Assembly: GCA_964531635.1 (NCBI GenBank)
Contig: CAZHCZ010000001.1
Coordinates: 1,621-65,620 of the forward strand
From: an uncultured Hyphomicrobiales bacterium
GTDB lineage: Bacteria; Pseudomonadota; Alphaproteobacteria; Rhizobiales; OSC116
Direction of reading: 5' to 3'
Length of the DNA: 64,000 nucleotides
The position numbers and the translations under genes were made by a program. Each line of letters begins with the position of its first letter. Within the stretch, counting starts at the first letter, position 1. Positions 28,872 through 62,711 of the stretch are shown one piece after another. The notes below the pieces were generated by a model that searched no databases, was not told the DNA's origin, and saw only the letters and a program-made list of their open reading frames with translations.

Positions 28872-29197
28872 AAAACCCCTCAATAAATATAAATTTTATA
28901 TTATACTAACCGCATCCCCTACATAATGTGGTTAACAAATAGTAAACTACACCATATGCTGAATCTGTGGCAAGGCTAAGGCTTAAAAAAAATTATTTTT
29001 CCCCAGTAAAAAAATATTGTTGGGCAATATACCCGAATATAAAATTTTATTGTATGCTTATGCACAGGCGGCGCGGTTTATTTGTTTATATTAAGGCAAA
29101 AACTACACGTTTAATTCATCAATATTTTTGTCTTGAATATAAGCGTGTATCAATAGATAGTGCAAATAAATCTAAATCTAACTGCTTTAAGGCTTCC

Positions 29198-30043
29198 ATG
29201 AAAACCCCAGACGAGCCCCCATCATCACAAATTATCACTAAATTTACTGAGCATGAGTTTGGTATTCGTAAATTTGGTCGAGTAAATTGGCTTGGTCTGT
29301 TCACTCTTTATAAAAAAGAGGTTATGCGGTTTGTCAGTATTTACAAACAAACCATCATCGCCCCTGTTATATCTATGTTGCTTTTTTTAGCAATTTTTAG
29401 CATTTCAGTTGGCGAGTTTAGGCCGCAAATTAATGGCGTAAGCTTTATTAGCTTTATTATCCCAGGGTTAATTATGAACGCGATGATGCAAAATGCCTTT
29501 GCCAATTCTTCATCTTCATTATTGGTTGCTAAAATCCAAGGCAATATTGTCGATATTTTAATGCCACCAATTTCGGCGGCAGAACTTATGCTGGCATTAA
29601 CAATGGGCGGCGCATCAAGAGGTTTAGTCGTTGGGCTTAGCACTGGCATTGTTATGATATATTTTGTCGATGTTCCTATACAGCATTTTTGGGTTATTAT
29701 TGTCTTTGCCATCTTAGGCAGTATGGTTATGTCGTTAATGGGACTTTTAGCAGGCATTTGGGCCGAAAAGTTTGACCACCTCAACACAGTAACAACTTTT
29801 ATTATACTACCCGCAACATTTTTATCTGGTACATTTTATTCTATTAGCCAATTGCCCGACTTTGCCAAAACCATCACTGCATTTAACCCTTTCTTTTATT
29901 TAATAGACGGCTTTCGGTATGGCTTTATTGGTAAAATAGAAAGCAGCCTACCGCTGGCTATTACTGTGGGCATTGTCACCTGCCTTATTTTATGGGTCTG
30001 GACATACAGTTTACTTAAAAGAGGCTATCGGTTAAAGTCATAA
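29198..30043 (+). CDS. ABC-2 type transporter permease (no adjacent ATPase)
   Basis: Start moved to ATG 29198 (MKTPDEPP...). About 280 aa with six TM helices of the ABC-2/NodJ type. The 77-codon upstream part of the track ORF (GTG start) looks non-coding. Confidence 0.78.
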   Translation: MKTPDEPPSSQIITKFTEHEFGIRKFGRVNWLGLFTLYKKEVMRFVSIYKQTIIAPVISMLLFLAIFSISVGEFRPQINGVSFISFIIPGLIMNAMMQNAFANSSSSLLVAKIQGNIVDILMPPISAAELMLALTMGGASRGLVVGLSTGIVMIYFVDVPIQHFWVIIVFAILGSMVMSLMGLLAGIWAEKFDHLNTVTTFIILPATFLSGTFYSISQLPDFAKTITAFNPFFYLIDGFRYGFIGKIESSLPLAITVGIVTCLILWVWTYSLLKRGYRLKS

Positions 30044-30093
30044 TTGGTTATGCCAATTTGGGTTTTTATGTTCGGCTTTGCCTCTCTCTGTTA

Positions 30094-30321
30094 CCTGCGG
30101 GCGGGTGCGCTGCACCCTTGCTTACGCTCCGCGGTCGGGCGCTTGCCCTCCTTCGTAAAAAATGTATTTTTTACTCACCCTTTTTACCCTCGACAGGTTG
30201 GAGGGTTTTCCCTAATAAACTTTGCTTGCGTTTTGCATTATAATTAAGCGTGAGGGGTAGGTTAGCGTTTTAATGGTGGGCGAACACGCGCTAACAAGGG
30301 CGCAGAACACCCGCCCGTAGG
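30094..30321. other. GC-rich, highly structured intergenic element (candidate ncRNA or MITE)
   Basis: 27-nt arms at 30094..30120 and 30295..30321 pair with 23 Watson-Crick pairs, 1 GU and 3 mismatches. Internal hairpins lie at 30137..30148, 30155..30174, 30186..30206 and 30261..30295. The element is locally far more GC-rich than its surroundings and lies between two convergent gene ends. Confidence 0.4.
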
Positions 30322-30361
30322 TCAAAAAAAAGAGAAGCAAATTCATCTGCTTGCTAGCAAG

Positions 30362-31774
30362 TTAACATTTTGTTAACTGTGTAAACTTTTGTTCCAAAAC
30401 AGAAAAAATTGTTCTAATGCCTTGTGCTTCGCCACCAATGGGGCGTGCGGGGCGGTCAGATATGTTCCATGCGTTCAAATCCCAATGAATATAGACCTCT
30501 GCATTTTCGACAAAGTTATCTAAAAACAGTGCCGCTGTTGTTGCACCTGCTAAGGGCATAGATGATATATTGTTTAAATCCGCAACTTTGCTTTTTAATG
30601 TTTTTGCATAGGGTTTGTGTAACGGCAATTGCCAAACGGGGTCATGAGTTTTTAACGCATGTTTATTTAAGTCCGCCGCGAACTCGGCATCGTCGGTAAA
30701 AAATGCTGCAATTTCAGGCCCTACAGCAACCCGTGCTGCGCCTGTTAAGGTTGCCATATCAAGTAATAAATCTGGAGCATCTTCGTCGGCATAGGCCAAT
30801 AAATCAGCAAGCACCAACCGCCCTTCGGCATCGGTATTGCCAATTTCTACACTTAAACCCTTATAAGATGTCAAAATATCCGATGGTCTAAACGCATCGG
30901 CCGAAACTGAATTTTCGACCGCACCAATAAGCACGGTTAAATCAATCGGCAATTTGGCACTCATAATCATAAAGCATAGACCGATAACATTGGCCGCCCC
31001 GCCCATGTCTTTTTTCATGGTCAACATGCCAGCTGCTGGTTTTAAGTCCAAACCGCCTGTATCAAACACCACGCCTTTGCCAACCAAAGTTACTTTGGGC
31101 AGGTTTTTTGCATCACTGCCACGCCATTGCAATTTTGCCAAGCGTGGCGCGCGCGCACTGGTACTGGCGCGCCCAACCGCATGAACAAGGTTAAAATTAT
31201 TTTTTAATAAATCTTCGCCAATAATCTCGCTATAAGTACCACCAAATTTATCGGCAAGTTTTTTTACTGCATTGCTAAGTTGTTCGGGCCCCATATCATT
31301 GGCAGGGATATTAATTAAATCTCTAACCATAATGGTCGCGTCAATTTTCACCTGAACATCAAACAAATCTACACCATGTCCAACAACTAAGTTTACTTGA
31401 GCTTTTTCATTATTCGCCGTTTGTTTATATCTATCAAAATCATAATCCGCCAAACCAAAAGCCAAATAGGCCACTTCGGCACTATAAAGCATACCCGATA
31501 TTTCATAATTTCCAGCAGGCAATTGGTTTAATTTAGCCAAGTTAAATGGGTCTGCCAATTCAAAATTTTGGGTTTTTTGATTGCCAACACCAAAATAAAC
31601 TTGCGCAATAAAACCCGCCTCGTCTTGAATAATAGCAATCTCTCCTTCGCCAGCGCTAAACTTATTTATGCCCAACCAAGTCATGTGCGCGGCAGGAAAA
31701 TCACCCTTTTCATACATTTCACACGAAATAAGTGCAATTTCTATTGCATTGTCTAAGCCATTAATAAGCGCCAC
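30362..31774 (-). CDS. M17 family leucyl aminopeptidase-like protein
   Basis: VGKGVVFDTGGLDLKP and NTDAEGRLVLAD metal-ligand motifs. 470 aa. Confidence 0.88.
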   Translation of the reverse strand: MALINGLDNAIEIALISCEMYEKGDFPAAHMTWLGINKFSAGEGEIAIIQDEAGFIAQVYFGVGNQKTQNFELADPFNLAKLNQLPAGNYEISGMLYSAEVAYLAFGLADYDFDRYKQTANNEKAQVNLVVGHGVDLFDVQVKIDATIMVRDLINIPANDMGPEQLSNAVKKLADKFGGTYSEIIGEDLLKNNFNLVHAVGRASTSARAPRLAKLQWRGSDAKNLPKVTLVGKGVVFDTGGLDLKPAAGMLTMKKDMGGAANVIGLCFMIMSAKLPIDLTVLIGAVENSVSADAFRPSDILTSYKGLSVEIGNTDAEGRLVLADLLAYADEDAPDLLLDMATLTGAARVAVGPEIAAFFTDDAEFAADLNKHALKTHDPVWQLPLHKPYAKTLKSKVADLNNISSMPLAGATTAALFLDNFVENAEVYIHWDLNAWNISDRPARPIGGEAQGIRTIFSVLEQKFTQLTKC

Positions 31775-34313: not shown

Positions 34314-34511
34314 TCACGTTAATCTTCGTTATATTAAATAAACCTTAAATATACCCTAAACATACATCAAACATATACTTAAGTTATTTCTTCGTATATT
34401 GAATCGTTGCATTAACACGTTGGTAATAATTGAGATATATATTACATATAGTTCAAGTTAAAATAACTTAACTTGAGTGGTGCTTAAAATAACGTGTATG
34501 GAGTATATCTT

Positions 34512-34682
34512 ATGAAAAATTTACTAAAAAACTTTGTTGCTGACGAATCTGGTGCAACTGCAATTGAATATGGTTTAATCGCTGCTGGTATTGCTATTGC
34601 AATCATCGCTGCTATTCAAACATTAGGTACTGATCTTGGTGCTCTATTCGGTAAGGTTAGCGTAGCAGTTAAGGCAGCGTAA
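34512..34682 (+). CDS. flp: Flp family type IVb pilin
   Basis: MKNLLKNFVADESGATAIEYGLIAAGIAIAIIAA... has the Flp motif (G/ATAIEYGLI). GGAG lies 9 nt upstream of ATG 34512. The track ORF starts at an upstream GTG. Confidence 0.9.
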   Translation: MKNLLKNFVADESGATAIEYGLIAAGIAIAIIAAIQTLGTDLGALFGKVSVAVKAA

Positions 34683-34942: not shown

Positions 34943-35130
34943 CCCTGTTAAACTTGTATATATTGAATATATATTAAATATACTTTACATATATACTTTA
35001 GTTATAGACATCTATATTAAAGAGTTGCTGTTAACAAATTAGTAACAACTAGTATCTATATTATAAATAGTTCAAATTGAAATTATTTATTTAGAACAGT
35101 GCTTAAAATAACGTGTATGGAGTATATCTT

Positions 35131-35310
35131 ATGAAAAATTTACTAAAAAACTTTGTTGCGGACCAGTCTGGTGCAACTGCAATTGAATATGGTCTAATCG
35201 CTGCTGGTATTGCTATTGCAATCATCGCGGCGGTTCAAACATTAGGCACTGACATTGGTGCGCTGTTCGGTGAAGTTAGCACAGCAGTCAAGGCGGTTCC
35301 TGTAGCATAA
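35131..35310 (+). CDS. flp: Flp family type IVb pilin (second copy)
   Basis: MKNLLKNFVADQSGATAIEYGLIAAGIAIAIIAAVQTLGTDIGALFGEVSTAVKAVPVA, with the same RBS and leader as flp1. Confidence 0.9.
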   Translation: MKNLLKNFVADQSGATAIEYGLIAAGIAIAIIAAVQTLGTDIGALFGEVSTAVKAVPVA

Positions 35311-35367: not shown

Positions 35368-35497
35368 TGCCTAATCCAACAAACCTCTAGCCCTACTTTG
35401 GTATTAACCCAAATTTTTTAGTTAAAAACCTCACCTGTTAAGAAATCATTTACCATAACATGCGATTTTGCATGTGATAGAAATTTATAGGTGTGTA

Positions 35498-36013
35498 ATG
35501 AGTGAATTGATTAATATTTTTATAAAACTTTTTTTCCCAACAATGATGATGGGCATCATTGTCTATGATTTTTTTACCCTAACTATACCCAATACGCTCA
35601 ATGCTTTAATTTTTATTGGCTTTATTGCTATTGTTTTTATAACAAATATGCCTCTTATCGACTCTGCTTGGCACATTTTAACGGCAATTTTGGTTCTTAT
35701 AGTCGGTTTTGGGTTGTTTGCCGCCAATATGTTTGGCGGAGGCGATGCCAAAAGCATTGCCGCAGTTGCCGCATGGTTTGGTTGGCAAATGGAAACACTC
35801 TATTTTTTAATTCTAACCGCTTTGCTCGGGGGAATTTTTGCCCTCATTCTGCTCGTTGTTAGAAATAAAAGCATCCAACATATGTTGCCTGAAAAAATTA
35901 AAAACATTGAATGGGTGGAGGCTATTGTTACGCCAAAAGCCCGCATGCCCTATGGCGTGGCTATTGGTGCAGCAGGTTTGTATCTATATTCACCCGAAAA
36001 ATGGTTGGTATAA
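35498..36013 (+). CDS. cpaA: A24 family prepilin peptidase CpaA/TadV
   Basis: Polytopic membrane protein with a GGGDAK active-site motif. Start taken at ATG 35498 (MSELINIF...). Directly downstream of the flp genes. Confidence 0.85.
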   Translation: MSELINIFIKLFFPTMMMGIIVYDFFTLTIPNTLNALIFIGFIAIVFITNMPLIDSAWHILTAILVLIVGFGLFAANMFGGGDAKSIAAVAAWFGWQMETLYFLILTALLGGIFALILLVVRNKSIQHMLPEKIKNIEWVEAIVTPKARMPYGVAIGAAGLYLYSPEKWLV

Positions 36014-36058
36014 GTTTAAAGTAAGAACAGAAAAGTAAAGTTTTAAAGGATAATAATA

Positions 36059-36808
36059 ATGAATATGTCAAAAATATTAATCATCGTCATCGCCCTAGGC
36101 GCTGCCATTGGCGCGATGATGTTATCTCAAAGCTTAATGGAACCTGAACAACAACAAATTGCCGCACCTATTATACAAGAGGTTGAAAAGGTCGATATAC
36201 TATTAGCCGCAAGCACTATGAAAATGGGTCAAAGAGTACGCTCGCGCGATGTGGAGTGGCGGGCTTGGCCTAAAGAAATGCTTCGCGATACTATGATTAC
36301 ACGTGATGATAATGACGATAAAATGCAGAAAGCGGTGGGTTCTATTGTCAAGGTTCAAATAGATGAAGGCGACCCAATACGGTTTTCAAAATTGGTAAAC
36401 CCCGAGAATGGCGGACTATTATCGGCCATTTTAGCCCCAGGAATGCGCGCAATCAGCACCCCAATTTCACCAGAAACGGGCGCAGGTGGGTTTATTTTAC
36501 CCAATGATAAAGTCGATGTTTTATTGGCCAAAGAAGATAAAAGTGGGAAAATACGTATATCAACAATCTTATCCAATATCAGGGTTTTGGCTATTGACCA
36601 AACCATCAGAGAAGAAGATGGCGAACAGGTTGTCGTTGGTAGAACAGCAACCCTTGAGCTTAACTCCATACAGTCTGAAGCCCTAACATTAGCCAATAGC
36701 GAAGGCAGCTTAACATTAAGTTTGCGAAGCCTTGCCGACCGTAATGTAACCGAAGAATCTATAACACGTAAGAAAAAACTAACTATTTTACGCAGTGGGA
36801 GGTCATAA
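36059..36808 (+). CDS. cpaB: Flp pilus assembly protein CpaB/RcpC
   Basis: N-terminal TM helix, SAF-like region and RcpC region (IRVLAIDQ). Position in the locus. Confidence 0.88.
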   Translation: MNMSKILIIVIALGAAIGAMMLSQSLMEPEQQQIAAPIIQEVEKVDILLAASTMKMGQRVRSRDVEWRAWPKEMLRDTMITRDDNDDKMQKAVGSIVKVQIDEGDPIRFSKLVNPENGGLLSAILAPGMRAISTPISPETGAGGFILPNDKVDVLLAKEDKSGKIRISTILSNIRVLAIDQTIREEDGEQVVVGRTATLELNSIQSEALTLANSEGSLTLSLRSLADRNVTEESITRKKKLTILRSGRS

Positions 36809-36810
36809 TA

Positions 36811-38292
36811 ATGCACGTTTTATCTCACCTTAAAACTAAAACACCTGTATATCGGTTCAATATTTTACAAAAAATGAGCTTATTGTTAATGGCAGCTTTA
36901 TTGCTTAGCTTAACAAATGTCATGCCCGTCTATGCCGATGAAGACAGTTACATAAAAATTAAAAGCTCAAAAACCGTTGTAACCCGTACGGTTAATTTGG
37001 GTAAAGATAAAACTCTGGTAATCGAGCTGCCGCGTAATGCCCGCGATATTTTAATCGGCAACCCCGAAATTGCCGAAGTTGTTGCCCGTAGTGCGCGTAA
37101 ATCTTATGTCATTGGCAAAAAAAATGGTTCGACCAATATTATTTATTTCGATGCCCGCAACCGCCGCATTGCCAATATTATCATAAATATTGAACCTGCA
37201 ACTTCGGCATTGGCCAACCTATTTTCTAGTAAAATGCCCGGAACGCGTATTAATGTCGAAGCCATAAATGGCAATATTGTTCTATCTGGGCAAGTTCGAA
37301 GTGCTTCTCAAGTTGGGCGTGCGGTGGCTATTGCCAGTAAATATATAAATAATGGTGAATCATCCGACGGTAAATTAGACACTAAAAATGTTATCAATAT
37401 GCTCACTTATAACGCACGTGAACAAGTTATGTTAAAAGTTTCTATTGTCGAAATGCAACGTAATAGTGTTAAACAGTTGGGCATTAACTTAGCGGCTATC
37501 GGCAATGTTGGTTCATCTATTATTAATTTTGCTAATGGCAACCCCTTTACATTGGGCAACGCAGCAGGTGGGCTAACAACATCCATCAGCAATGGCGGCT
37601 CCAGTGCGATGATTAGGGCTTTAGAGCAAATTGGTGTCGTTAGAACCCTTGCCGAACCTGTTCTGACCGCTATATCAGGCGAAACCGCAAACTTTTTGGC
37701 AGGTGGTGAAATTCCTATCCCCGCAGGTTATGACCCGGAAACAAATACAGTTTCTATCGAATATAAACCCTTTGGTGTTGGTTTAACCTTTACTCCTGTT
37801 GTGTTAGACAGAGGGCGCATTAGCCTAAAAGTCAATACCGAGGTTAGCGAAATTGTCGCCGATGGCTCAATTGCTATCAATGAAAACCTTACACTTCCAT
37901 CTATAAAAGTGCGTCGCGCTACCACTACGGTTGAACTGCCATCAGGCGGGTCGTTAGTCTTGGCAGGGCTTATTCAAGAATCAACCAAAAAAACCATTTC
38001 TGGTGTACCATTCTTTAAAGATATACCAATTTTAGGCTCATTATTTAGAAGTGTTGATTTTATTAATAACGAAACCGAGTTGGTGATTATAGCCACCCCC
38101 TATATTGTCGACCCAACATCACAAGCAAGCTTAGGCAGGCCTGATGCAGGCTTTAAAGTTACCGATGATTTTTCAGGAACATTTATGGGACAAATCAACG
38201 CCATTTATGGCGGAGGTGATGCCAGCGGTGTTGCCAATGGTATAAATAATATTAACCTCGCCAAAGATTTTGGTTTTGTAGGAGAACAATAA
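36811..38292 (+). CDS. cpaC: Flp pilus secretin CpaC/RcpA
   Basis: Pilus N-terminal domain plus the secretin C-terminal domain (VELPSGGSLVLAGLI, VPFFKDIPILGSLFRS, ELVIIATPYIV). The true start may be the internal ATG at 36874 (MSLLLMAALLL signal peptide). Confidence 0.92.
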   Translation: MHVLSHLKTKTPVYRFNILQKMSLLLMAALLLSLTNVMPVYADEDSYIKIKSSKTVVTRTVNLGKDKTLVIELPRNARDILIGNPEIAEVVARSARKSYVIGKKNGSTNIIYFDARNRRIANIIINIEPATSALANLFSSKMPGTRINVEAINGNIVLSGQVRSASQVGRAVAIASKYINNGESSDGKLDTKNVINMLTYNAREQVMLKVSIVEMQRNSVKQLGINLAAIGNVGSSIINFANGNPFTLGNAAGGLTTSISNGGSSAMIRALEQIGVVRTLAEPVLTAISGETANFLAGGEIPIPAGYDPETNTVSIEYKPFGVGLTFTPVVLDRGRISLKVNTEVSEIVADGSIAINENLTLPSIKVRRATTTVELPSGGSLVLAGLIQESTKKTISGVPFFKDIPILGSLFRSVDFINNETELVIIATPYIVDPTSQASLGRPDAGFKVTDDFSGTFMGQINAIYGGGDASGVANGINNINLAKDFGFVGEQ

Positions 38293-38293
38293 T

Positions 38294-39016
38294 ATGACAA
38301 ATATACTTCAAACATTCGTCAAAAAAAGTGGCATTAAAAGTTTTGTTATGCTGCTGGCAGCACTAAGCTTAAGTGGTTGTGCCCAAACTTATTCAACCCC
38401 TCAAGGTGGCAATATTAATCAGCCTGACTTTCAGCGCAATAACCCAATAAAAGTTACACAAGGCAAACAAGAAATAGACCTTGTGCCGCCAAAAGGTGCT
38501 TACGGTTTAACACCAGGGCAAGTGGCAGCATCGGCAAGTTTTATTATAGATTATATGGACAAAGGCGAAGGGCGGTTAGAAATTTGGGCGCCACGCGGCA
38601 ATAAAAACACTGCGGCTATAAATCGCGCTCAGAAAACCATTAAAAATATTTTATACGATGCAGCAATCCCCAATTCAGCTATCGATTACCGAAGCTATAA
38701 TGCCCATGGCAATAGCAAAGCGCCTCTTGGCATGAAATTTAAGCGCTATTATGCGAGTGTTGAAAAGTGCGGCGGCATTAGAACAAATTTAGGTGCAAAT
38801 TATAACAATGTAAATTATAAAAGCTTTGGCTGTGCTTATCAAACAAACATCGCGGCAATGGTTTCGAACCCTAAAGATTTATTAGGACCGGGTGCTATGA
38901 GTGGTGCATCAGCCGAAAGGCGTCAAATAATTTGGGCAAAATATGTTGCAGGTCAGCCCACAGGAGCAACACGCTCTGCCGATGAAAGAGTTTTAATTAA
39001 GGATGTCGCAAAATGA
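38294..39016 (+). CDS. cpaD: pilus assembly lipoprotein CpaD
   Basis: Lipobox LSLSGC. 240 aa. Sits between the secretin gene and cpaE, as in Caulobacter-type loci. Confidence 0.75.
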   Translation: MTNILQTFVKKSGIKSFVMLLAALSLSGCAQTYSTPQGGNINQPDFQRNNPIKVTQGKQEIDLVPPKGAYGLTPGQVAASASFIIDYMDKGEGRLEIWAPRGNKNTAAINRAQKTIKNILYDAAIPNSAIDYRSYNAHGNSKAPLGMKFKRYYASVEKCGGIRTNLGANYNNVNYKSFGCAYQTNIAAMVSNPKDLLGPGAMSGASAERRQIIWAKYVAGQPTGATRSADERVLIKDVAK

Positions 39017-40437
39017 ATGATGATAATTTTTTCGATGCTTTACCCGAAGATATGGACATTACAAAAAGCAATGTGGAACAATCGCAACCGATTATTCGCC
39101 CCAACACAAACCCAACACTCGATATTGGGTTGGATGATGAAAACAATCTAAGTGGCAATAATAATGCAGTAAAACAAACCGCTATGGAGCATAATGTTAC
39201 TCAACATGTTTCATCTTTTGATGGTGATAGCGTCAATAAACCTTTGCAAATCCCTCAAATTTCTATCCAAGCATTTTTTGAAACTCAGGCGACAGCGCAA
39301 TTGTTTCAATTGAGCGCAACCGATAGGCGCATGTCACGCGCGCACATAACCATGCAAGCGGGTGGTATTGTTGCCGCTAAAAACTTCTATCAAAACACCC
39401 CTACACCCAATTTAATAGTTATCGAAAGCCGCTTAGCCCAAGACCAATTGCTCGCGGCGTTGGACGACCTTGCTTCAGTGTGTGATGAAGGCACAAAAGT
39501 TTTTGTACTGGGTCATGAAAATGACATCCACCTCTATCGCAATTTGGTTTCAAAAGGCATTAGCGATTATTTGGTGTTGCCAACATCTCCACTTAAATTC
39601 ATCGAAACCATTTATAATATATATCATGACCCAAGCAGCGAGCCTATGGGTAAAAAATATGCGTTTTTTGGGGCAAAAGGGGGCGTGGGGTCAAGCAGTT
39701 TAGCACATAATATTGGCTATTCCATTGCAGAAAATATTCACGACAGTGTAACAATTGTAGATATGGATTTTGCGTTTGGTACATTGGGTCTTAACTTTAA
39801 TCAAGATGCAGTTCAAGACATTGTCAAACTGCTAAAAACACCCGAGAGAATAGACCAAGCCACAATTAATAAAATGCAAATAAAGTATAATGAATATCTA
39901 AATTTACTGCCCAATATTTCAACCATTGACGATGATGAAAATGTTAGCGTTAATGCTGTTAATGCTTTATTGCAATCTATGACGCAAAATGTTTCCAATT
40001 CAATTGTCGACTTGCCACATGTTTGGAATAACTGGGTAAAGTCAACCCTTATCCAAGCCGATCAAATTGTCATCACCACCACACCCGATTTGGCGTGCCT
40101 AAGAAACACCAAAAATATTATAGATTATTTAAAAAGTAATCGCCACCAAGATGTCGACCCATTGGTGGTTATGAACCAAGTTGGCATGCTAAAAAAACCC
40201 GAAATTAAAGCCAAAGATTTTGCCGATACCATTGGTGTTCCAATTATAGCCGAAATTAATTATGATCCGTATTTGTTTGGTACAGCAGCCAATAATGGGC
40301 AGATGATTGACGAATTTAGCAAATCTGAAAAGATTTTAGACCAATTTAACCAAATTGCACAGATTTTAGTTGGTAAAAAAACCCAACCAATAAGTCATAA
40401 AAAAAACCTATTCGATTTTTTTAAAAAGAAAGCATAA
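39013..40437 (+). CDS. cpaE: pilus assembly protein CpaE/TadZ (ParA/MinD-like)
   Basis: Deviant Walker A GAKGGVGSSSLAHNIG preceded by a receiver-like region. ATGA overlap with the cpaD stop. Confidence 0.85.
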   Translation: MNDDNFFDALPEDMDITKSNVEQSQPIIRPNTNPTLDIGLDDENNLSGNNNAVKQTAMEHNVTQHVSSFDGDSVNKPLQIPQISIQAFFETQATAQLFQLSATDRRMSRAHITMQAGGIVAAKNFYQNTPTPNLIVIESRLAQDQLLAALDDLASVCDEGTKVFVLGHENDIHLYRNLVSKGISDYLVLPTSPLKFIETIYNIYHDPSSEPMGKKYAFFGAKGGVGSSSLAHNIGYSIAENIHDSVTIVDMDFAFGTLGLNFNQDAVQDIVKLLKTPERIDQATINKMQIKYNEYLNLLPNISTIDDDENVSVNAVNALLQSMTQNVSNSIVDLPHVWNNWVKSTLIQADQIVITTTPDLACLRNTKNIIDYLKSNRHQDVDPLVVMNQVGMLKKPEIKAKDFADTIGVPIIAEINYDPYLFGTAANNGQMIDEFSKSEKILDQFNQIAQILVGKKTQPISHKKNLFDFFKKKA

Positions 40438-40459
40438 CCATTAAGGTTGAGGAAAATAT

Positions 40460-41917
40460 ATGTTTGGAAAGCGCAACGAATTTAGCAATAAAACAGCAGC
40501 CCAAAACAAGCCTGCAGACGTTGTTGCGCCTACCGAGCAAACGCATGTAGCGCACAAAGTGACGGCTAAAGGTGGGCAAATTCCCGATATTAATATTACC
40601 CCAACAGCACCAACTGTTAAAGAAAAAACACCTGAATATTATGCCACCAAAAAAAGCGTGTTCGATACATTAATCGAAACCATCGACATGACGCAACTCG
40701 CCCAAATGGATAGCGATACAACCAAGGCCGAAATTGCCGATGTGGTCAATGAGATTTTAATAATCCAAGGCGATGTTATGTCGATAGCCGAGCAAGAAGA
40801 ATTGCTCGAAGATATTTGCAACGATGTACTCGGTTATGGACCTTTAGAGCCTCTATTGGCGCGCGATGATATTGCCGATATTATGGTCAATGGCGCAAAT
40901 AAAACCTATATTGAAGTTAATGGTAAAATGGAACTGACCAATATTAAGTTTCAAGACAACGCACAATTAATGAATATATGCCAACGTATTGTAAGCCAAG
41001 TTGGCAGGCGAGTCGATGACAGCAGCCCAATTTGTGATGCACGCCTTATGGATGGTTCTCGTGTTAATGTTATTGCTCCTCCGCTCGCCATTGATGGGCC
41101 AACACTCACTATCCGTAAATTTAAAAAAGACAAACTCACTCTCGCCAATTTGGTTAACTTTGGAACAATTACTCCAGATGGCGCAACAATACTCGAAATT
41201 ATAGGGCGTTCTCGGTGTAATGTCGTTATCTCAGGCGGTACAGGCTCAGGTAAAACCACATTGCTCAATTGTATGACCCAATTTGTCGATGCCGATGAGC
41301 GGGTTATAACCTGCGAAGATACAGCCGAACTGCAATTGCAGCAAGACCATGTTGTGCGCCTAGAAACCCGCCCGCCAAATCTCGAAGGCGAAGGCGAGGT
41401 TACCATGCGCGAGCTCATTAAAAACTGCCTGCGTATGCGGCCAGAGCGTATTATAGTTGGCGAGGTGCGTGGGCCCGAAGCGTTTGACTTGCTACAAGCA
41501 ATGAATACAGGCCATGATGGTTCAATGGGCACATTACATGCTAACAGCCCGCGTGAAGCTTTGTCACGGATGGAAAGCATGATTACTATGGGCTATAGCC
41601 TACCCAGCGCCACCATAAAAGAAATGATAGCAGGCGCGGTTGATATCATCATCCAAGCCGCAAGGTTGCGTGATGGTTCACGCCGCATCACCCATGTTTC
41701 AGAAGTTATCGGCATGGAAGGCGATGTTATAGTTCTGCAAGATTTGTTTGTTTATAATATTCTTGGTGAAGATGAAAATGGCAAGCTTATTGGGCGGCAT
41801 CAATCGACAGGCATCGTCAAGCCCCACTTTTGGGATAAAGCTAAATATTATGGCGAGCATATGAAACTCGCAGAAGCCTTAACCAATAGTGCCGCGCAGG
41901 AGGATAATTTTGCTTAA
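40460..41917 (+). CDS. cpaF: Flp pilus assembly ATPase CpaF/TadA
   Basis: Walker A GGTGSGKTT, Walker B RIIVGEVRG, His box TGHDGSMGTLHANS. Confidence 0.95.
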   Translation: MFGKRNEFSNKTAAQNKPADVVAPTEQTHVAHKVTAKGGQIPDINITPTAPTVKEKTPEYYATKKSVFDTLIETIDMTQLAQMDSDTTKAEIADVVNEILIIQGDVMSIAEQEELLEDICNDVLGYGPLEPLLARDDIADIMVNGANKTYIEVNGKMELTNIKFQDNAQLMNICQRIVSQVGRRVDDSSPICDARLMDGSRVNVIAPPLAIDGPTLTIRKFKKDKLTLANLVNFGTITPDGATILEIIGRSRCNVVISGGTGSGKTTLLNCMTQFVDADERVITCEDTAELQLQQDHVVRLETRPPNLEGEGEVTMRELIKNCLRMRPERIIVGEVRGPEAFDLLQAMNTGHDGSMGTLHANSPREALSRMESMITMGYSLPSATIKEMIAGAVDIIIQAARLRDGSRRITHVSEVIGMEGDVIVLQDLFVYNILGEDENGKLIGRHQSTGIVKPHFWDKAKYYGEHMKLAEALTNSAAQEDNFA

Positions 41918-42902
41918 TCAAAACTTAGTAGAAATAGCAACAATTACCATTGTCACTTTGGCCGTTCTGGCGATTGTATATACAATATTGTCGACATTTT
42001 TTAACAAATCAAAATCCGATATCCGCAAAAAAAATATTTCATCTAAACGCACTAACTCTCTATCCGTCGAAGTGAGTTCAAACGATAGAAGCTCTGACTT
42101 AAGACGCAAAGAAATTCAAAACAAACTCAAAAGACAAAAAAAAGAGAAAAAAACAAAAAAACTATCCATGCAACAGCGTTTGCAACAAGCGGGGCTTAAC
42201 ATTTCAATCACATTATTCTTTGTATTGTCTGCTATACTCGGTTTTATTTGCGCCATTGTAACTCTTATGGTTGCACCAAATTTAATGGTTGCTGGCTTTG
42301 CATTTTTTGTCGGTATGTTTGGGCTACCACGGTTTATTTTAAGCCGAATGAAAATCCGCCGTCAAAAAAAGTTTTTAGATGAATTCCCAACCGCCATAGA
42401 TGTTATTGTTCGCGGTGTGCGTTCAGGACTACCGCTTAACGATGCCCTTAAAATGATTGGCGAAGAATCAACAGAGCCTTTACGCTCAGAATTTTTACTT
42501 CTAATTAATGAGCAAAAAATGGGCATTACTATTCAAGAAGGTTTGTTTAGAATGAACGGGCGTATAGAATTGCCTGAACTTAACTTTTTAGCCATTGTTA
42601 TTAACATTCAACAAACTATGGGCGGTAATTTATCCGAAACTTTGTCTGGTTTATCGACCATTATTCGTGGGCGTAAAAAAATGCGAGCAAAAATAGACGC
42701 CATATCGACCGAAGCTAAAGCCAGTGCTTCGATTATTGGCAGCTTACCGATTTTAATTATGTTGGGCATTAGTGCCGTTTCTCCGGGTTATATGGACCCA
42801 ATGCTTGAAACAACAACAGGGAATTTTTTACTCGGTGGGTCTGCCTTATGGATGTTGTGCGGAATTTTAGTAATGCGCCAAATGATAAATATGAAAATAT
42901 AG
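41910..42902 (+). CDS. tadB: Flp pilus assembly inner-membrane protein TadB
   Basis: T2SSF-type domain. Start placed at TTG 41910, 7 nt after AGGAGGA inside the cpaF 3' end. The track ORF starts at 41889. Confidence 0.85.
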   Translation: MLNQNLVEIATITIVTLAVLAIVYTILSTFFNKSKSDIRKKNISSKRTNSLSVEVSSNDRSSDLRRKEIQNKLKRQKKEKKTKKLSMQQRLQQAGLNISITLFFVLSAILGFICAIVTLMVAPNLMVAGFAFFVGMFGLPRFILSRMKIRRQKKFLDEFPTAIDVIVRGVRSGLPLNDALKMIGEESTEPLRSEFLLLINEQKMGITIQEGLFRMNGRIELPELNFLAIVINIQQTMGGNLSETLSGLSTIIRGRKKMRAKIDAISTEAKASASIIGSLPILIMLGISAVSPGYMDPMLETTTGNFLLGGSALWMLCGILVMRQMINMKI

Positions 42903-42911
42903 GAGATAAAA

Positions 42912-43883
42912 ATGGAATCTTTTATTAATTATATGACAGATCCGCAAAATCTTGTTGTTATAATTGTCGGAATATCATCATTCATCACAATATTTATTCT
43001 CGTCGGTCCAATGATTGCAGGCAATCCTTTAGACACTCGTATGAAATCTGTCGCCGAAGAGCGTAAACGCCTAAGAGAACGCCAGCTAAACGAAGTCAAC
43101 AAAAAAACGCTCAATAATGCGCGCTCTGGGCAAGAAGACTTTATGAAGATAATAGTCGATAAGTTTAACTTGCGTAAGGCGTTCGAGAGCAAGGATACTA
43201 TTAACTCTTTACGTATGGCGGGCTTTCGAGGGCAAACTTCAATTTACGTATTTTTATTTTTTCGCTTAGCAGTGCCTATTGTTTTACTTATCACATCATT
43301 GCTTTATATGTTTTTTGTCAATGATTTTGATCAAACGAACACAATGATTTTTGTTTATGCCTTTGGTCTTTTCATTCTCGGGTTTTATTTGCCAAACCTA
43401 TATTTAAAAAATGCAATCACCAAACGACAAGAAATTTTACGCGCCATTTTCCCCGATACTATGGATTTATTACTTATATGTGTCGAGGCAGGCATGGCAA
43501 TTGAAGCCGCCTTTAATAAAGTTTCGACCGAAATAGCCGTGCAGTCTATGGAAATGTCCGAAGAATTGGCATTAACAACTGCCGAACTTTCTTATCTTTC
43601 TTCACGCACAGCCGCTTATAGAAATTTAGCAGCACGCACAGGGTTAGATGAAATTAAAGCCCTTACAACTTCACTGGTACAAGCCGAGCAGTATGGTACG
43701 CCTTTAGGCTCAGCCCTTCGTGTTATTTCCGCCGAAAACCGTGATGCCCGCATGACAAGAGCCGAGAAAAAAGCCGCATCATTACCACCCAAACTCACAG
43801 TACCAATGATATTGTTTTTCTTGCCCGTTATTTTTGTAGTTATCTTAGGCCCAACAATTATGCTTGTTTCCAAAACCTTCTAA
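42912..43883 (+). CDS. tadC: Flp pilus assembly inner-membrane protein TadC
   Basis: T2SSF-type domain (DTMDLLLICVEAGMAIEAAF). Follows tadB. Confidence 0.88.
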   Translation: MESFINYMTDPQNLVVIIVGISSFITIFILVGPMIAGNPLDTRMKSVAEERKRLRERQLNEVNKKTLNNARSGQEDFMKIIVDKFNLRKAFESKDTINSLRMAGFRGQTSIYVFLFFRLAVPIVLLITSLLYMFFVNDFDQTNTMIFVYAFGLFILGFYLPNLYLKNAITKRQEILRAIFPDTMDLLLICVEAGMAIEAAFNKVSTEIAVQSMEMSEELALTTAELSYLSSRTAAYRNLAARTGLDEIKALTTSLVQAEQYGTPLGSALRVISAENRDARMTRAEKKAASLPPKLTVPMILFFLPVIFVVILGPTIMLVSKTF

Positions 43884-50059: not shown

Positions 50060-51138
50060 CGGCTTAAGCCTCCTGTTAAAGACGGTATATCAAACGGTGC
50101 AAATCCATAATGTTCAATCCAACGTAAATCCGCATCAAAAAACGCCCGCAAATCAGGAATACCATATTTAAGCATTGCGATGCGGTCAATGCCCATACCA
50201 AAGGCAAAACCTTGATAAATATCGGGGTCGAGGTTGCAATTGCGTAAAACATTGGGGTGAACCATGCCCGAGCCTAAAATTTCGAGCCATTCATCACCAT
50301 CACCAATAATAATTTGGTTGCCCTTGCGCGTGTAAGCAATATCCACTTCATAACTAATTTCAGTAAACGGAAAATGGTTGGCTCTAAACCGCATTTTTAA
50401 ATTATCAATCTCAAAAAACGCTTTAAAAAACTCTTCCAACGTCCCCTTTAAATTCGCCAATGTCGTGCTTTTATCAATAACTAAAGCTTCAATTTGGTGA
50501 AATTGTGGTGTGTGGGTTAAATCACTGTCATTTCTATATGTTCGCCCTGGGGCTACCACACGAATGGGTGGCTGTTGTGCCTCCATAGTCCGAATTTGCA
50601 CATTCGATGTTTGGGTGCGTAACACTTTACGGTTACCATCTGTATCGGGTGCGAAATAAAATGTGTCATGGTCTTGCCGCGCTGGGTGATGCGGCGGAAT
50701 ATTAAGCGCGGTAAAATTATAAAAATCGGTTTCAATATGCGGGCCATCGGCAACGGCAAACCCCATATCGGCGAAAATAGCCACCACTTCTTCCCACACT
50801 TGGCTAAGCGGATGTATCCGCCCTTCATTGGCAGGGTCAGCTTGTACGGGCAAGGTTACGTCAAGTGTTTCAGTAGCAAGTCGCTTATCTAGTGCCTCAT
50901 CTTCTAAACTGACCTTACGCGCTGCAATGGCGGCATTCACTCGAGCTTTTAACTGGTTAACGGTCGCCCCGAATGTCTTGCGTTCTTCAGGCAACATTTT
51001 ACCTAGGGTTTTAAGCAATAAAGAAATTTCACCCTTTTTACCCACCGCCTCAATACGAATATTATCGAGCGCATCAAGCTTATTAGCACCCTCGATAGAG
51101 GTCAATATCTTTTGTTCCAACTCAGTAAGGTCTGCCAT
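50056..51138 (-). CDS. pheS: phenylalanine--tRNA ligase alpha subunit
   Basis: Class II core ([37 protein letters not shown]). 4-nt overlap with pheT. Confidence 0.96.
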
Positions 51139-52567: not shown

Positions 52568-52924
52568 TCAAGTAAACTCAGTGAGTTTTTCAAAAATACC
52601 GTGCTTATTTATAATTTTAGGCCTGGGGAGCAGTAAAAAGCATAAAATATTGTCAAGAGTGCCTTGTTCCCAATTGATAACCAAATCAAAAGAGCTCCAA
52701 GACATACGCCGCGATATGGTCAAAATTTTCATAAATCCTGAGCGAGCACCATCAGTCCACACTTGCGGGCGCGGTTTAATTTCATCAAAATGCGGTACAA
52801 TAAGGGTAAATTTTGCCTGTGGAAAATACGCAACTAAACGTTCATAATCTTCCACACTTATCCCATGCCCAATCGCCAAAACACATATATTATGCGCGGC
52901 TTTTAATTCTGCATCTGCTGCCAT
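52568..52924 (-). CDS. hypothetical protein (118 aa)
   Basis: The ORF overlaps the 3' end of the upstream SDR gene by 22 nt and is followed by a terminator. I recognised no family. Confidence 0.4.
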   Translation of the reverse strand: MAADAELKAAHNICVLAIGHGISVEDYERLVAYFPQAKFTLIVPHFDEIKPRPQVWTDGARSGFMKILTISRRMSWSSFDLVINWEQGTLDNILCFLLLPRPKIINKHGIFEKLTEFT

Positions 52925-53709
52925 ATAGCCCTTAACCCTTGTTTGTAATTGGGGTGTTTTAATTCAATCCCCAACTCATTTTTAATTTTATCATTTTTTA
53001 TATATTTACACTCAGCATAAAAACTCTGCGCCATCTCACTCATGCCCGCTTTGTCCTCTGCTACAAGCTTAGGCACAGCAACTCCCATAATTTGCGCGGC
53101 AAATTCAATAATATCGGCATTCGGGGCAGGCAAATCATCGGCGATATTATAAATATTCACTCCCCTTAGCCCACCCAACAGCGAGGCTTTAAGTACCTGT
53201 GCAATATCATCAACATGCGCCCGACAAAAAAACTGCTTATCATTATTTTCAAGCCGCACATCAACCCGCCTAGCCCGCCCCTGGTTAAGCGCATCAAAAG
53301 CCGAGCGACCAAGCCCATAAATACCAGGTAGCCTAAATATATTAACCGAATCAATTGAGCAACCAGACCATTGATTTTCCGCCAACACCCGCCATTTCGC
53401 CCGCAAACTTTGTGCAGCAGTATGTGTAGTTTCATCAACAAACCCACCCTGATGGTCGCCATAAACCCCAGTTGTCGATAAATACCCCAACCATTTAACG
53501 TTACTATTTTCTATCAATTGCCCAAACTTCTCATAAACAACATCGCCTTTATCGCTCGGTGGAATAGACATTAAAACCGCGTCCGCACTGTCTAGCTCCT
53601 CAACCCCGCTCCAGTCGCGCGAAACTCCAACAACCTCGAACTGCTCAACCAAAGCATCGGTCAAATGCTGCCCAACATAGCCCATGCCAAATATCAACAA
53701 TTTGCGCAT
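52903..53709 (-). CDS. NAD(P)-binding SDR-family epimerase/dehydratase-like protein
   Basis: Start moved to ATG 53709 (MRKLLIFGMGYVGQHL Rossmann motif), which overlaps the queG stop as TAATG. Confidence 0.8.
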   Translation of the reverse strand: MRKLLIFGMGYVGQHLTDALVEQFEVVGVSRDWSGVEELDSADAVLMSIPPSDKGDVVYEKFGQLIENSNVKWLGYLSTTGVYGDHQGGFVDETTHTAAQSLRAKWRVLAENQWSGCSIDSVNIFRLPGIYGLGRSAFDALNQGRARRVDVRLENNDKQFFCRAHVDDIAQVLKASLLGGLRGVNIYNIADDLPAPNADIIEFAAQIMGVAVPKLVAEDKAGMSEMAQSFYAECKYIKNDKIKNELGIELKHPNYKQGLRAIWQQMQN

Positions 53710-54824
53710 TATACCATTTCCCACTCTTGACGCACATCGATGTCTGTTTCTAACTCCACCCACTCATTATATAAAGCCGCAAATTCTTGGCTTTTCATTA
53801 ATTGCCCTGCTGCCCAAACAGCCGCTCCGCGAATTAGCGGTTCATCATCTGCCAACAACCCAATAATCTGTGGTAGATATTTACGGTTTTCACTATTGCC
53901 AATGGCAATTAAAACATTTCGAATAAACCGTCGCCGCTTAATGCGTTTAATGGGCGATGCGGTAAATAAATCTCTAAATTCGTCATCGTTTAACGCCACT
54001 AAATCCGCCAAATCGGGCATTGACAGTTCCGCTCGCGCATGAAATTTTGCTTCAGCGGATAATTGCGCAAACTTATTCCACGGACAAACCGCCAAACAAT
54101 CATCACAGCCATAAATATGGTTGCCAATAAGTGGGCGCAATTCAAGCGGAATATGTCCGCCATATTCAATGGTTAAATAAGAAATACACTTGCGCGCGTC
54201 AATTTGGTTGGGTTGCACGAACGCATCGGTTGGGCAAATGTCTAAACACGCGGTACAAGACCCGCAAACATCTTCACCCACATCACTTTGTGGCAGCTCC
54301 AACGTGGTGAATATCGAGCCCAAAAACAACCAAGAACCAAATTCTTTGCTCACTAAGTTTGTATGTTTGCCTTGCCACCCCAAACCCGCAGCCCCAGCCA
54401 GAGGCTTTTCCATTACAGGCGCGGTATCTACAAACACTTTAACATCAATATCTGGCAATTGCCCCACCATATAACGCGCCAAGGCTTTGAGTTTTTTCTT
54501 TATCAAGTCATGGTAATCATGCCCACGTGCATAAACACTAATTAGCCCTTTGTCTTTATGCTCTAGCTGCCATAACGGGTTTTGCTTAGGTCCATAATTA
54601 ACCCCCAACATAATAACGCTATTAACCTCTTGCCATAAATTATTAGGAGCAGAGCGGCGTTCCAACGTATCTGCCATCCACCCCATTTCACCATATAATC
54701 CCTGCGCAACAAATTCTTGTAAACCCTCACCCGCATAGGCTATTTTTTCGGGCTGAGTAAAACCAACAACATCAAACCCTAGGCGTAATGCTTCTGCTTC
54801 TATTAATTTTGCAATATCTGTCAA
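53709..54824 (-). CDS. queG: epoxyqueuosine reductase QueG
   Basis: Two 4Fe-4S motifs (CGSCTACLDICPT and CDDCLAVCPWN) and a HEAT-like C-terminus. Apparent TTG start embedded in the first copy of the 18-bp repeat. Confidence 0.9.
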   Translation of the reverse strand: MTDIAKLIEAEALRLGFDVVGFTQPEKIAYAGEGLQEFVAQGLYGEMGWMADTLERRSAPNNLWQEVNSVIMLGVNYGPKQNPLWQLEHKDKGLISVYARGHDYHDLIKKKLKALARYMVGQLPDIDVKVFVDTAPVMEKPLAGAAGLGWQGKHTNLVSKEFGSWLFLGSIFTTLELPQSDVGEDVCGSCTACLDICPTDAFVQPNQIDARKCISYLTIEYGGHIPLELRPLIGNHIYGCDDCLAVCPWNKFAQLSAEAKFHARAELSMPDLADLVALNDDEFRDLFTASPIKRIKRRRFIRNVLIAIGNSENRKYLPQIIGLLADDEPLIRGAAVWAAGQLMKSQEFAALYNEWVELETDIDVRQEWEMV

Positions 54825-56977: not shown

Positions 56978-59053
56978 ATGTTTGCTAAGTTTATGATTTA
57001 TTTGAAAAATACAAAATTCACCTTGAAGGAAAAGTTCACAAAAAAAACAGCCCCTAAGAACAATTCAGCTTTATTCTCATCTTTTAAAATTGCGACCAGA
57101 ATTAACACCCTTGTGGTTTTATCAATTGTTGCTATGTCCGCCATTGCAGGTTTGGCATATTTTCAAAAAAATGAAAGTTTATTATTTGAACAACAAGAAA
57201 ACAATGTAGGAAGTTTAAGCGCGCAGGCCTTAACGTTGGAAAAAGCTTCTTTGTCTTTCTCCAAGCAATCACGAGATTTTTTTATAAGAAAAGACATTGG
57301 GTATGCTAAAGATGTTAAAGCGACACTGGATAAATTAATTAGGTCGTTAAAGCGCATGAAAAATTTACCAGGTGCAGAAGCTGTTGATGCCGAAATTAAT
57401 ACACTTGTTGCCAATAGTAATAAGTTAAGCACTATATTTTCTAGCTTAGTAGAGCAACAAACAAAACTTGGTTTTAATAAAAATTCTGGTTTGCATAAAG
57501 CCTTTGATATAGAGGCAGAGGCCTTTGAAACTATAATCATTAAAACTGGTAATTTGCTTAAAATTGAAAACAAACTTAATACAATGCGTCGGTTCGAGTC
57601 TTATTATTTAGCAACAGGTGATTTAAAATATATTACACCTGTGGCAAAGGCCAGAAACCTAACCCAAGGTTATTTTTATGCTGGTGGAATTGATAAAGAC
57701 ACTCGTAAAGTGCTTGGTGACCATTTAAAAGCTTATTTTAATGCTTTTAAGCTATACGTAAAAGAAGCAGGGGTTTTAGGTGAAACATTGGAGCAATTTA
57801 AAACTGAATATGCACAACTTCAGCCTAACTTTAAAAAACTAAAGGTTGCCGCAGATTTAAAACTTAGTGCTGTTAGTGCTGCTCGTGCGACAAGTGAAGA
57901 ACGCTTAACCATTACTATTTATACTGCTATGGGGGTTATTATAACGCTTATTATTGGTTTTGGTTGGATTATTGGGCGTTCAATTTCTAAACCCTTATCG
58001 GCTATGGTCGCTTTAATGGAAAGGTCATCAAAAGGCGAAATTGGTCTTGATATTCCTGCTACACAGCAAAAAGATGAAGTGGGTGATTTGGCAAGAGCGC
58101 TCGAGATTTTTGATATGAATAATGCCGAAGTTGCGCGTCTAAAAGCAAAAGATGAAAAAGGCCGCGAGAAAGCAGCGCAAGATAGAAGTGATGAACTGAG
58201 TTCAATAGCCAATTCTTTGGAAACCCAAGTGCAGTCAGTTGTTGGCAATGTGTCAAAACAATCGCAAACAATGAGCAGTGAATCCACACGTTTGGACGGT
58301 GTTATTGATACATTGGTTTCACACACTCAAAGCGCGAGTACAAATGCCAATAATATATCAGGGCAAATTAATATGATTGCATCGGCTGCCGAAGAATTGT
58401 CATGCTCATTTTCTGAAGTGGCGGTTCAGGTTGAAAAATCGAGCGAAATTTCACAAAATGCAGTTACACAATCGAATGAAATTAACAGCACTGTTAAATC
58501 TCTCGCCAGTTCAGCACAAGCAATTGGTGATGTGGTTAAGCTTATTTCGGATATTGCCGAACAGACAAATTTATTAGCACTTAATGCAACAATTGAAGCC
58601 GCAAGAGCAGGCGATGCTGGTAAAGGCTTTGCTGTTGTAGCATCGGAAGTAAAAAATCTTGCCAACCAAACCGCCAATGCAACGGTGGAAATTTCTAATC
58701 AAATCTCAACCATTCAAGATGTGACCAATAATACCGTCACTTCGATTGCTGAAATTAGCAATACGGTGCAAGATATGGGTGAAATTACCAACCAAATTCA
58801 ATCGGCTGTTGAGCAACAAACAGCGGCAACCGCAGAAATTAGCCGTAATGTTCAAGAGGCTGCACAAAGCACAAATGAGTTTAGCCAAATTTTAGAAGCT
58901 GTTTCGACCCAGACCAATACAGTTGGCGATATTTCATCTACAGTATTGAGCGAAGCCGATAAAACCACAGTGCAAATTGGTGAGCTTGGCAGTAGAATGA
59001 CAGATGTTATTGACAGCCTACAACAAAGCTCTAAGGTAACGAACGCGGCTTAA
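56978..59053 (+). CDS. methyl-accepting chemotaxis protein
   Basis: Two TM helices flanking a ~270-aa periplasmic helical domain, a HAMP domain, and the conserved signalling hairpin [39 protein letters not shown]. Confidence 0.93.
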
Positions 59054-59110
59054 TAACTTAAGCGCGCACGCAAGTGCTAACAGTGAACTATAGCAAACGT
59101 ATAAATGTAA

Positions 59111-59144
59111 GAACCCGTAGCGCTTTCAGGAGTGCTACGGGTTC
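59111..59144. terminator. GC-rich hairpin between the convergent MCP and SDR genes (putative bidirectional terminator)
   Basis: GAACCCGTAGC-N12-GCTACGGGTTC (11-bp perfect stem). Only short T runs on either side. Confidence 0.5.
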
Positions 59145-59252
59145 TTTCACTAGGCGTTTGCGTTTGTACTAACTTTAGCTTTTAAGATACAGAAAAGCAA
59201 AAATACCGCCAATAATTACAAGCCAGTAATGTTAATTAAACAAGTGCTGGGG

Positions 59253-62614: not shown

Positions 62615-62711
62615 CACCCCCCTTAATTAGACAAGCGCCCGAGCGAAGCCACCAAGTGCTATTTGGAGTGCAAGTCAAAGGAAGGCAAAGCCGAACAAAA
62701 AAATGAGCGCA

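Follow-up and report, generated by a model that had tools for sequence, protein, structure and literature searches.

The ABC-2 permease / aminopeptidase spacer

The window, i.e. the whole 64-kb stretch of DNA that was analysed, originates from an uncultured marine alphaproteobacterium, an OCS116-like member of the Hyphomicrobiales. Genomes of this clade are compact, with spacers of tens of bases. The nearest homologs of the M17 aminopeptidase were 64-70% identical and were labelled Rhizobiales or OCS116-cluster MAGs, and those of RpoN were 77-85% identical. The element described here lies in a core genome neighborhood, consisting of pstCAB-phoU-phoB, gcrA, an ABC-2 permease gene, the element, an M17 aminopeptidase gene, a TPR protein gene and truA. 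It had been placed between two convergent genes by an earlier model reading of the sequence alone (the sequence-only reading), and this placement holds: the element is found between the stop codons of the ABC-2 permease gene (28967-30043, + strand) and the M17 aminopeptidase gene (30362-31774, - strand). The convergent spacers of the window measured -4, 2, 7, 30, 97, 199 and 318 nt, and the element occupies the longest of them.

The ABC-2 permease was called mechanically as an ORF of 358 aa with a GTG start. Its true start is probably near MKTPDEPP, because residue 111 is the first one in the Pfam match and the proteins of relatives have 271-275 aa. No ABC ATPase gene adjoins the permease gene, either here or in relatives. 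A 44-aa ORF at 30212-30346, with a lipobox-like LVSAC, was rejected as a gene, having neither a Shine-Dalgarno sequence nor homologs.

The two 27-nt arms, at 30094-30120 and 30295-30321, have the letters and positions first given for them. The 24 of 27 paired positions reported earlier hold on the + strand when G-U pairs are counted, with 23 of 27 being Watson-Crick pairs; on the - strand the count is 25 of 27. The arms reach 35 nt in a repeat finder (30093-30127 / 30288-30322, 80% match) and 54 nt with one indel in blastn (30077-30127 / 30288-30341, 76%, E 6e-5). All four inner hairpins were recovered (30137-30148, 30155-30174, 30186-30206 and 30261-30295). The arms are also GC-rich in an AT-rich window, as had been noticed, with GC fractions of 0.78 and 0.70 against 0.41 for the window; that of the interior (30153-30260) is 0.38. 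The lowest-GC kilobase of the window (0.28) lies elsewhere, at two tandem, near-identical Flp-type pilin-like ORFs (62 and 65 aa; 34494-34682 and 35113-35310). These are found upstream of a complete tad/cpa pilus cluster (35468-43883), with a prepilin peptidase, RcpC/CpaB, a secretin, CpaD, an ATPase and two T2SSF proteins. One ORF inside this cluster (39013-40437, 474 aa) and another at 52903-53763 (286 aa) had no Pfam match at E<=1e-8.

The inverted repeat and the fold exceed chance expectation. The element is the longest inverted repeat of the 64-kb window, and no other pair of 27-nt arms there matched at 23 or more positions across a gap of 300 nt or less; the same criteria gave no pair in 20 first-order Markov simulations. 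The predicted fold energy was -105 kcal/mol on the + strand (z -5.1) and -108 kcal/mol on the - strand (z -7.2), and none of 200 shuffled sequences folded as well. As we read it, the element is bigger than first reported and extends over ~30063-30345. Its parts, and the residue next to it, are as follows:

30063-30087, + strand: 5' module of the left unit, with a T-run, GTTCGG, the mini-palindrome GGC-TTT-GCC and CCTCTCT
30094-30120, + strand: left arm, pairing with the right arm at 30295-30321; diverged homolog of the family core GCGTGCGTTCGCTCCGCTCTCTTGCC
30121-30152, + strand: continuation of the left unit, with GCGGTCGGGCGCTTGCCCTC and the hairpin GGGC-GCTT-GCCC
30153-30260, + strand: AT-rich interior, with the hairpins 30155-30174 and 30186-30206 and the terminal GTGAGGGGTA at 30250-30259
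30261-30345, - strand: right inverted partial unit, with the hairpin 30261-30295, the right arm 30295-30321 and T8 on the - strand at 30328-30335
30347-30361, no strand assigned: residual half of the aminopeptidase hairpin, CTGCTTGCTAGCAAG, outside the repeat

The right unit mirrors the left one beyond the arms, AGAGAAGCAAA (30329-30339) being the complement of TTTGCCTCTCT (30077-30087). At 30239-30244 the AU-rich interior has a perfect TATAAT that is part of a palindromic context, ATTATAAT.

The ABC-2 / M17 aminopeptidase pair was syntenic in the contigs of five relatives (L001, L002, L007, L008 and L009). The element was missing from the spacer of the pair in all five, and these spacers measured 58-134 nt vs 318 nt in the window. 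Since they are short and lack the element, ~230-260 nt were gained at this spacer in the window genome. In the relatives' spacers, the ABC-2 gene is followed by a simple hairpin, and the aminopeptidase gene by a conserved GCTAGCAAG...CTTGCTAGC hairpin.

The latter hairpin, a palindrome of the form GCTAGCAAG-loop-CTTGCTAGC, lies directly 3' of the aminopeptidase stop codon in L001 (2330-2385), L002 (4440-4500), L007, L008, L009 and L011, and it is kept even in L011, where the ABC-2 gene is missing. The window retains its right half only, which is itself a 12-nt palindrome, CTTGCTAGCAAG. Its role could be that of a conserved terminator or of a binding site for a protein.

A dispersed intergenic repeat family

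A search of the genome for further copies, proposed by the sequence-only reading, was run within the 64-kb window and yielded copies at 62615-62711 and 59054-59108. Together with the reported element, this makes three loci with four units in the window; the expanded spacers of the relative with most copies are listed with them:

Copy A, ~30063-30345, left unit + and right unit -: the reported element, in the ABC-2 / aminopeptidase spacer
Copy B, 62615-62711, - strand: single short unit, in the 97-nt spacer between the convergent rpoN and ubiB genes
Copy F, 59054-59108, - strand: unit cut off, between a chemoreceptor and an epimerase gene, directly after the hairpin 59106-59149
L048, 2425-2977, 7572-8146, 13254-13865 and 18464-19083: expanded spacers of 51-56% GC, with family units and further repeated modules, e.g. 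GCTCTGGAAGTCTGCATTTTT and GACAGTTGGCTGGT

Copies A and B have 15-, 11- and 8-mers in common, all colinear, and their alignment score of 30.5 was the best of 1952 window segments (runner-up 24). Two occurrences of the 21-mer TTTTTNTGTTCGGCTTTGCCT were seen in the window (30063-83 and 62703-683, matching at 20 of 21 positions), where 0.01 would be expected. The 11-mer is TCGGGCGCTTG, from the 30121-30152 stretch. In blastn, copy B matched relatives directly (L048 copy D2, E 3.6e-5; L049, E 1e-4). Its fold was unremarkable (z +1.2 and -0.85). Copy F has a 27-nt exact match to L048 (59083-59057 = 2788-2814), although the RpoN proteins of the two genomes are just 81% identical. Shared 14-15-mers at 51029, 8841, 33252 and 42135 were mostly intragenic and AT-rich, and were treated as chance. 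The window copies are diverged, with none near-identical to another. They are old, and present-day mobility is at most putative.

Copy B is placed exactly at a break in gene order: rpoN is followed by the convergent ubiB here, and by hpf and ptsN in L042, L044, L046 and L048. Family copies lie directly after ptsN in L044 and L048. The repeats may mark or mediate rearrangements. At the locus of copy F, bacA and the epimerase gene are convergent neighbors in relatives, 15-32 nt apart, and are separated by 575 repeat-filled nt in L048. In the window, a 691-aa chemoreceptor gene (56978-59252; MCPsignal, HAMP) lies between the two, and copy F adjoins its stop codon, beside the strong hairpin 59106-59149.

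Among the relatives, examined at their rpoN loci, the L044 contig ends with 95 nt of sequence aligning with 30066-30152. In a windowed scan, this locus (copy C) scored 25.5, the best of 4360 segments, the next scoring 19; the pairwise alignment to copy C scored 28. L048 holds eight units at four loci in a 19-kb contig, two of its copies, D and D2, being 81.5% identical across 363 nt. L049 has a partial copy 96-97% identical to D, and the contig ends inside it. L048 and L049 represent the same organism in two samples, with identical RpoN, and they differ by 18 nt within the copy behind ptsN (L049 5195-5234 vs L048 13370-13380). The 18-nt stretch, GCTCGGGCGCGCTCGTTC, is flanked by a direct repeat, TTCGCTC, and looks like slippage inside the repeat.

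Several parts of copy A reappear in these copies. A module of the 30063-30087 type also opens copies in L044 and L048. The counterpart of the 30121-30152 stretch, GCGGTCGCGCTTGCCTC, is present in the L048 units D_R and D2_L. The terminal GTGAGGGGTA is similar to the L048 3' motif, of which ATGAGGGGTA ends the units S1_b and S2_U1; apart from GTGAGGGGTA, the interior (30153-30260) showed no likeness to relatives. The right unit (30261-30345) is tied to the family solely through its likeness to the left one.

An HMM was trained on the canonical units of the relatives alone, without window sequences. Its top three matches in the window were copy F (E 3e-4), the left unit of copy A (E 0.004; 30063-30122 aligned to model positions 3-64) and copy B (E 0.45). 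A three-sequence model left the ranking unchanged, with weaker E-values (0.09 for the left unit of copy A). When all ten mosaic units were aligned with MAFFT, the resulting relatives-only HMM did not recover copy A; usable models came from alignments of the canonical units only. Judged from these matches, copy A very probably belongs to the relatives' family, the link being real but moderate (E 0.004, ~70% identity over 60-90 nt) and partly a chain via copy B and the L044 copy.

The family is dispersed and intergenic, and its copies are known from at least three genomes. The model found no copy in the other clade DNA that was fetched (L001-L004, L007-L012, L042, L043, L045-L047 and L050-L052), including ~17 kb of the closest relative (L001, L042). 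The distribution is patchy, with abundant copies in L048 and diverged relics in the window genome. The expanded spacers of L048 measure 553-620 nt; in L042, L044 and L046, those between the same genes measure 15-170 nt. Short ORFs called inside the L048 spacers (30 and 74 aa) are probably spurious. The contigs L044, L048 and L049 all end inside or beside copies, which would fit multi-copy repeats, where assemblies commonly break. Each of the eight loci is situated downstream of a gene 3' end (five convergent, three co-directional), and no divergent spacer was found to hold one.

The units share an order of modules: a T-run, ACGTTCGG, a small variable palindrome, CCTCTCTGTTAGCACT, the GC-rich core GCGTGCGTTCGCTCCGCTCTCTTGCC, then GCGGTCGCGCTTGCCTC and, in some units, a 3' (A/G)TGAGGGGTA. 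They measure ~100-190 nt, and doublets 230-400 nt. The small palindrome, which follows ACGTTC, varies in sequence and keeps its pairing: the versions seen were GGC-TTT-GCC, GGCTTAAGCC, GCCTTAAGGC, GCTTAAGC, GGCC-TGTC-GGCC and GCCCACC-TTTC-GGTGGGC, with the stem pairs GGC/GCC, GGCTT/AAGCC, GCCTT/AAGGC, GCTT/AAGC, GGCC/GGCC and GCCCACC/GGTGGGC. Copies B and F are singlets; units also occur in pairs of inverted orientation. The arms of the L048 doublets are 18, 31 and 72 nt long and 196-284 nt apart, compared with ~160 nt between the arms of copy A. Copy A is a full left unit (~30063-30260) facing a partial right unit (30261-30345), and its long closing stem arises from the complementary cores of these two facing units. 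The family elements are mosaic with fuzzy ends, and modules such as GCTCTGGAAGTCTGCATTTTT are themselves repeated in L048.

In wider collections, the arm pattern CGGGCGGGTGNNCTGCNCCCTTG gave no match in 185,579 species-representative genomes, a set that does not include the source genome. Its two matches in metagenomes, one coding and one a lone hairpin without a partner arm, were judged to be chance. So were 22 matches of the paired-arm pattern in genome contigs (all in genomes of 63-77% GC and without extended similarity), and seven matches of one arm pattern in GC-rich viral contigs. The viral contigs gave no match for the 5' motif or the family core. Neither the element nor L048 copy D gave a meaningful blastn match to plasmids and phages, and a text search of the literature for the motif returned only one irrelevant primer. 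The family has no Rfam entry and no match in the plasmid, phage and viral collections.

Origin of the element and alternative readings

We consider it probable that the element is an inverted doublet of a lineage-specific, GC-rich intergenic repeat family, non-autonomous and mobile or formerly mobile, of the REPIN / BIME / MITE kind. The sequences show the repeat family, its dispersal, its doublet architecture and the gain of this doublet between two convergent core genes. In the mechanism proposed here, copies would have spread by transposition through an enzyme encoded elsewhere. The covarying mini-hairpin beside a conserved flank suggests structure-specific recognition, by analogy with HUH or RAYT-type enzymes. 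Read-through from either flanking gene would fold into a hairpin of ~-100 kcal/mol, and this predicted RNA hairpin may stop 3' exonucleases or convergent read-through. Tolerated or selfish DNA is more likely than a dedicated gene.

The sequence-only reading had offered a non-autonomous MITE as one possibility. In substance this possibility is supported: the element belongs to a non-coding repeat family dispersed through spacers of at least three genomes. Two signs of a mobile repeat named in that reading were not seen: the window copies are diverged and not near-identical, and no candidate boundary, fuzzy as these are, showed a target-site duplication. No direct repeat flanked 30093/30322, 30091/30325 or 30077/30339, positions at which the true ends are uncertain and for which the relatives' spacers are too diverged to serve as an empty site. 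The element has no coding capacity, with short unconserved ORFs only, and its six-frame translation gave nothing at E<=10 as a protein query. No transposase, recombinase or reverse transcriptase was present among the window ORFs scanned with Pfam, which were most of the window ORFs.

A bolder version of the preferred reading, which we hold to be rather unlikely, would make the family a REPIN-like class of its own, not yet described and unusually large, with units of 100-190 nt and doublets of 230-400 nt. Mobilisation would then fall to a structure-specific enzyme acting on the covarying mini-hairpin after ACGTTC. If so, the elements could multiply intergenic space 5- to 30-fold in otherwise compact marine alphaproteobacterial genomes, and copies would mark rearrangement points, e.g. 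the broken rpoN-hpf-ptsN cluster at copy B.

The placement of all eight loci behind gene 3' ends, with none in divergent spacers, could also point to a family of functional 3'-UTR modules, i.e. RNA units that terminate or insulate convergent transcription, or protect mRNA from 3' exonucleases, and that were multiplied by duplication and recombination, not by transposition. Ordinary hairpins at the same position behind the ABC-2 gene in relatives are consistent with this, and the 27-nt identity of copy F with L048, set against RpoN at 81%, suggests constraint. However, sites behind genes are also where selfish repeats are best tolerated, and the relatives cope with spacers of 15-134 nt. Units are often shortened, and copy B, a singlet, shows no unusual degree of structure (z +1.2 and -0.85). 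A scan for intrinsic (Rho-independent) terminators found no terminator-like site inside the element, and no U-run follows the large stem, which has A8 after it on the + strand and T8 before it on the - strand. The large stem is not a canonical terminator. Judged from the sequence, the T8 and a weak hairpin (AGCAA...TTGCT) together resemble a terminator belonging to the aminopeptidase gene itself. We regard the 3'-UTR explanation as unlikely.

The other suggestion of the sequence-only reading, a free-standing gene for a structured regulatory RNA (6S-like or some other sRNA) with the closing stem and partly open AU-rich centre as its functional fold, now appears very improbable. The element resembles 6S RNA in its long closing stem, less-paired centre and ~200 nt length, both of its strands fold very stably (z -5.1 and -7.2), and the perfect TATAAT lies in its AU-rich interior. 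Between L048 copies D and D2, the 103 predicted pairs included two compensatory and six one-sided changes and none broken, a pattern compatible with a conserved fold; this covariation is without statistical power, being equalled in 116 of 500 shuffles, and such pairing cannot tell an RNA from a ssDNA constraint. Rfam gave no match at the gathering score in the window, 6S included, and between 29950 and 30450 at E<=10 only two matches appeared (E 2.3 and 9.2), both noise; the L048 copies gave nothing. ARAGORN found no tRNA or tmRNA. A single-copy syntenic gene does not fit a member of a multi-copy repeat that is missing at the same locus in five relatives, while homologous units occur at unrelated, non-homologous loci, in both orientations, shortened and mosaic. 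No promoter-like site was seen inside or upstream of the element except one weak match within the ABC-2 gene, and the element is not closed by a hairpin and U-run on either strand.

An invertible DNA switch, in which a site-specific recombinase flips the 160-nt segment with an internal promoter, would make use of the 27-35 nt inverted repeats and of the TATAAT that is palindromic in ATTATAAT, but it is hardly credible: both neighboring genes face the element, so that an internal promoter would give antisense RNA only, no -35 box is suitably spaced, no recombinase gene was found among the scanned window ORFs, and the repeat family already accounts for the arms.

With the repeat-family reading preferred, the element should be annotated as a repeat and not as an RNA gene. 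A family model would improve binning and assembly of genomes of this clade and flag false sRNA predictions; in L048, family units make up 550-620-nt spacers in an otherwise compact clade, and assemblies break there. The family also offers a tractable case of repeat expansion and decay in close relatives, being abundant in L048, present as diverged relics here and absent from 17 kb of the closest relative.

Comparison with known repeat systems

RIMEs are Rhizobium-specific intergenic mosaic elements of the Rhizobiales, ~100 nt in length. By description, they resemble the family in their alphaproteobacterial host, their intergenic position and their mosaic of palindromic modules; at ~100 nt they differ from it in length. 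RIMEs are mentioned in PMC2573895.

Our family shares several properties with MITEs: a length of 100-400 nt, terminal inverted repeats (27-35 nt, 80-85%), no coding capacity, several dispersed copies, presence or absence among relatives, and a stable hairpin predicted for the RNA that is transcribed together with neighboring genes. Bacterial MITEs with terminal inverted repeats include the Correia elements of Neisseria and ERIC/IRU of enterobacteria, and the Rickettsia palindromic elements are listed with them. The Rickettsia elements enter genes, whereas the family copies are found in spacers only. Further differences from MITEs are that neither a target-site duplication nor a parent insertion sequence was found, that the copies are mosaic and of variable length and do not represent one uniform unit, and that they are GC-rich in an AT-rich genome.

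A RAYT gene (Y1 HUH transposase) flanked by REPs is the defining partner of REP sequences, and none was found among the scanned ORFs of the 64-kb window. REPs, BIMEs and REPINs are extragenic and non-coding, with units that stand alone or pair up as inverted doublets, which fold into long hairpins as ssDNA or mRNA; they also form clusters and mosaics with alternating orientation, are lineage-specific and are mostly inherited vertically (PMC3116915, PMC3337134). In function and architecture they are the closest to the family, which likewise has inverted doublets forming hairpins, singlets and clusters, all extragenic, and a small palindrome near the unit start that keeps its pairing. The sizes differ: REP units measure ~20-40 nt and REPINs ~100 nt, compared with units of ~100-190 nt and doublets of 230-400 nt here, where only the 6-18 nt mini-palindrome after ACGTTC is REP-like in size. 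No conserved GTAG-type head was seen in the family units. Because the units exceed REP size, and because a RAYT gene, a target-site duplication and a parent insertion sequence were not found in the DNA covered, we do not file the family as a member of the REPINs or MITEs, and describe it as a lineage-specific family, new but of the same general kind.
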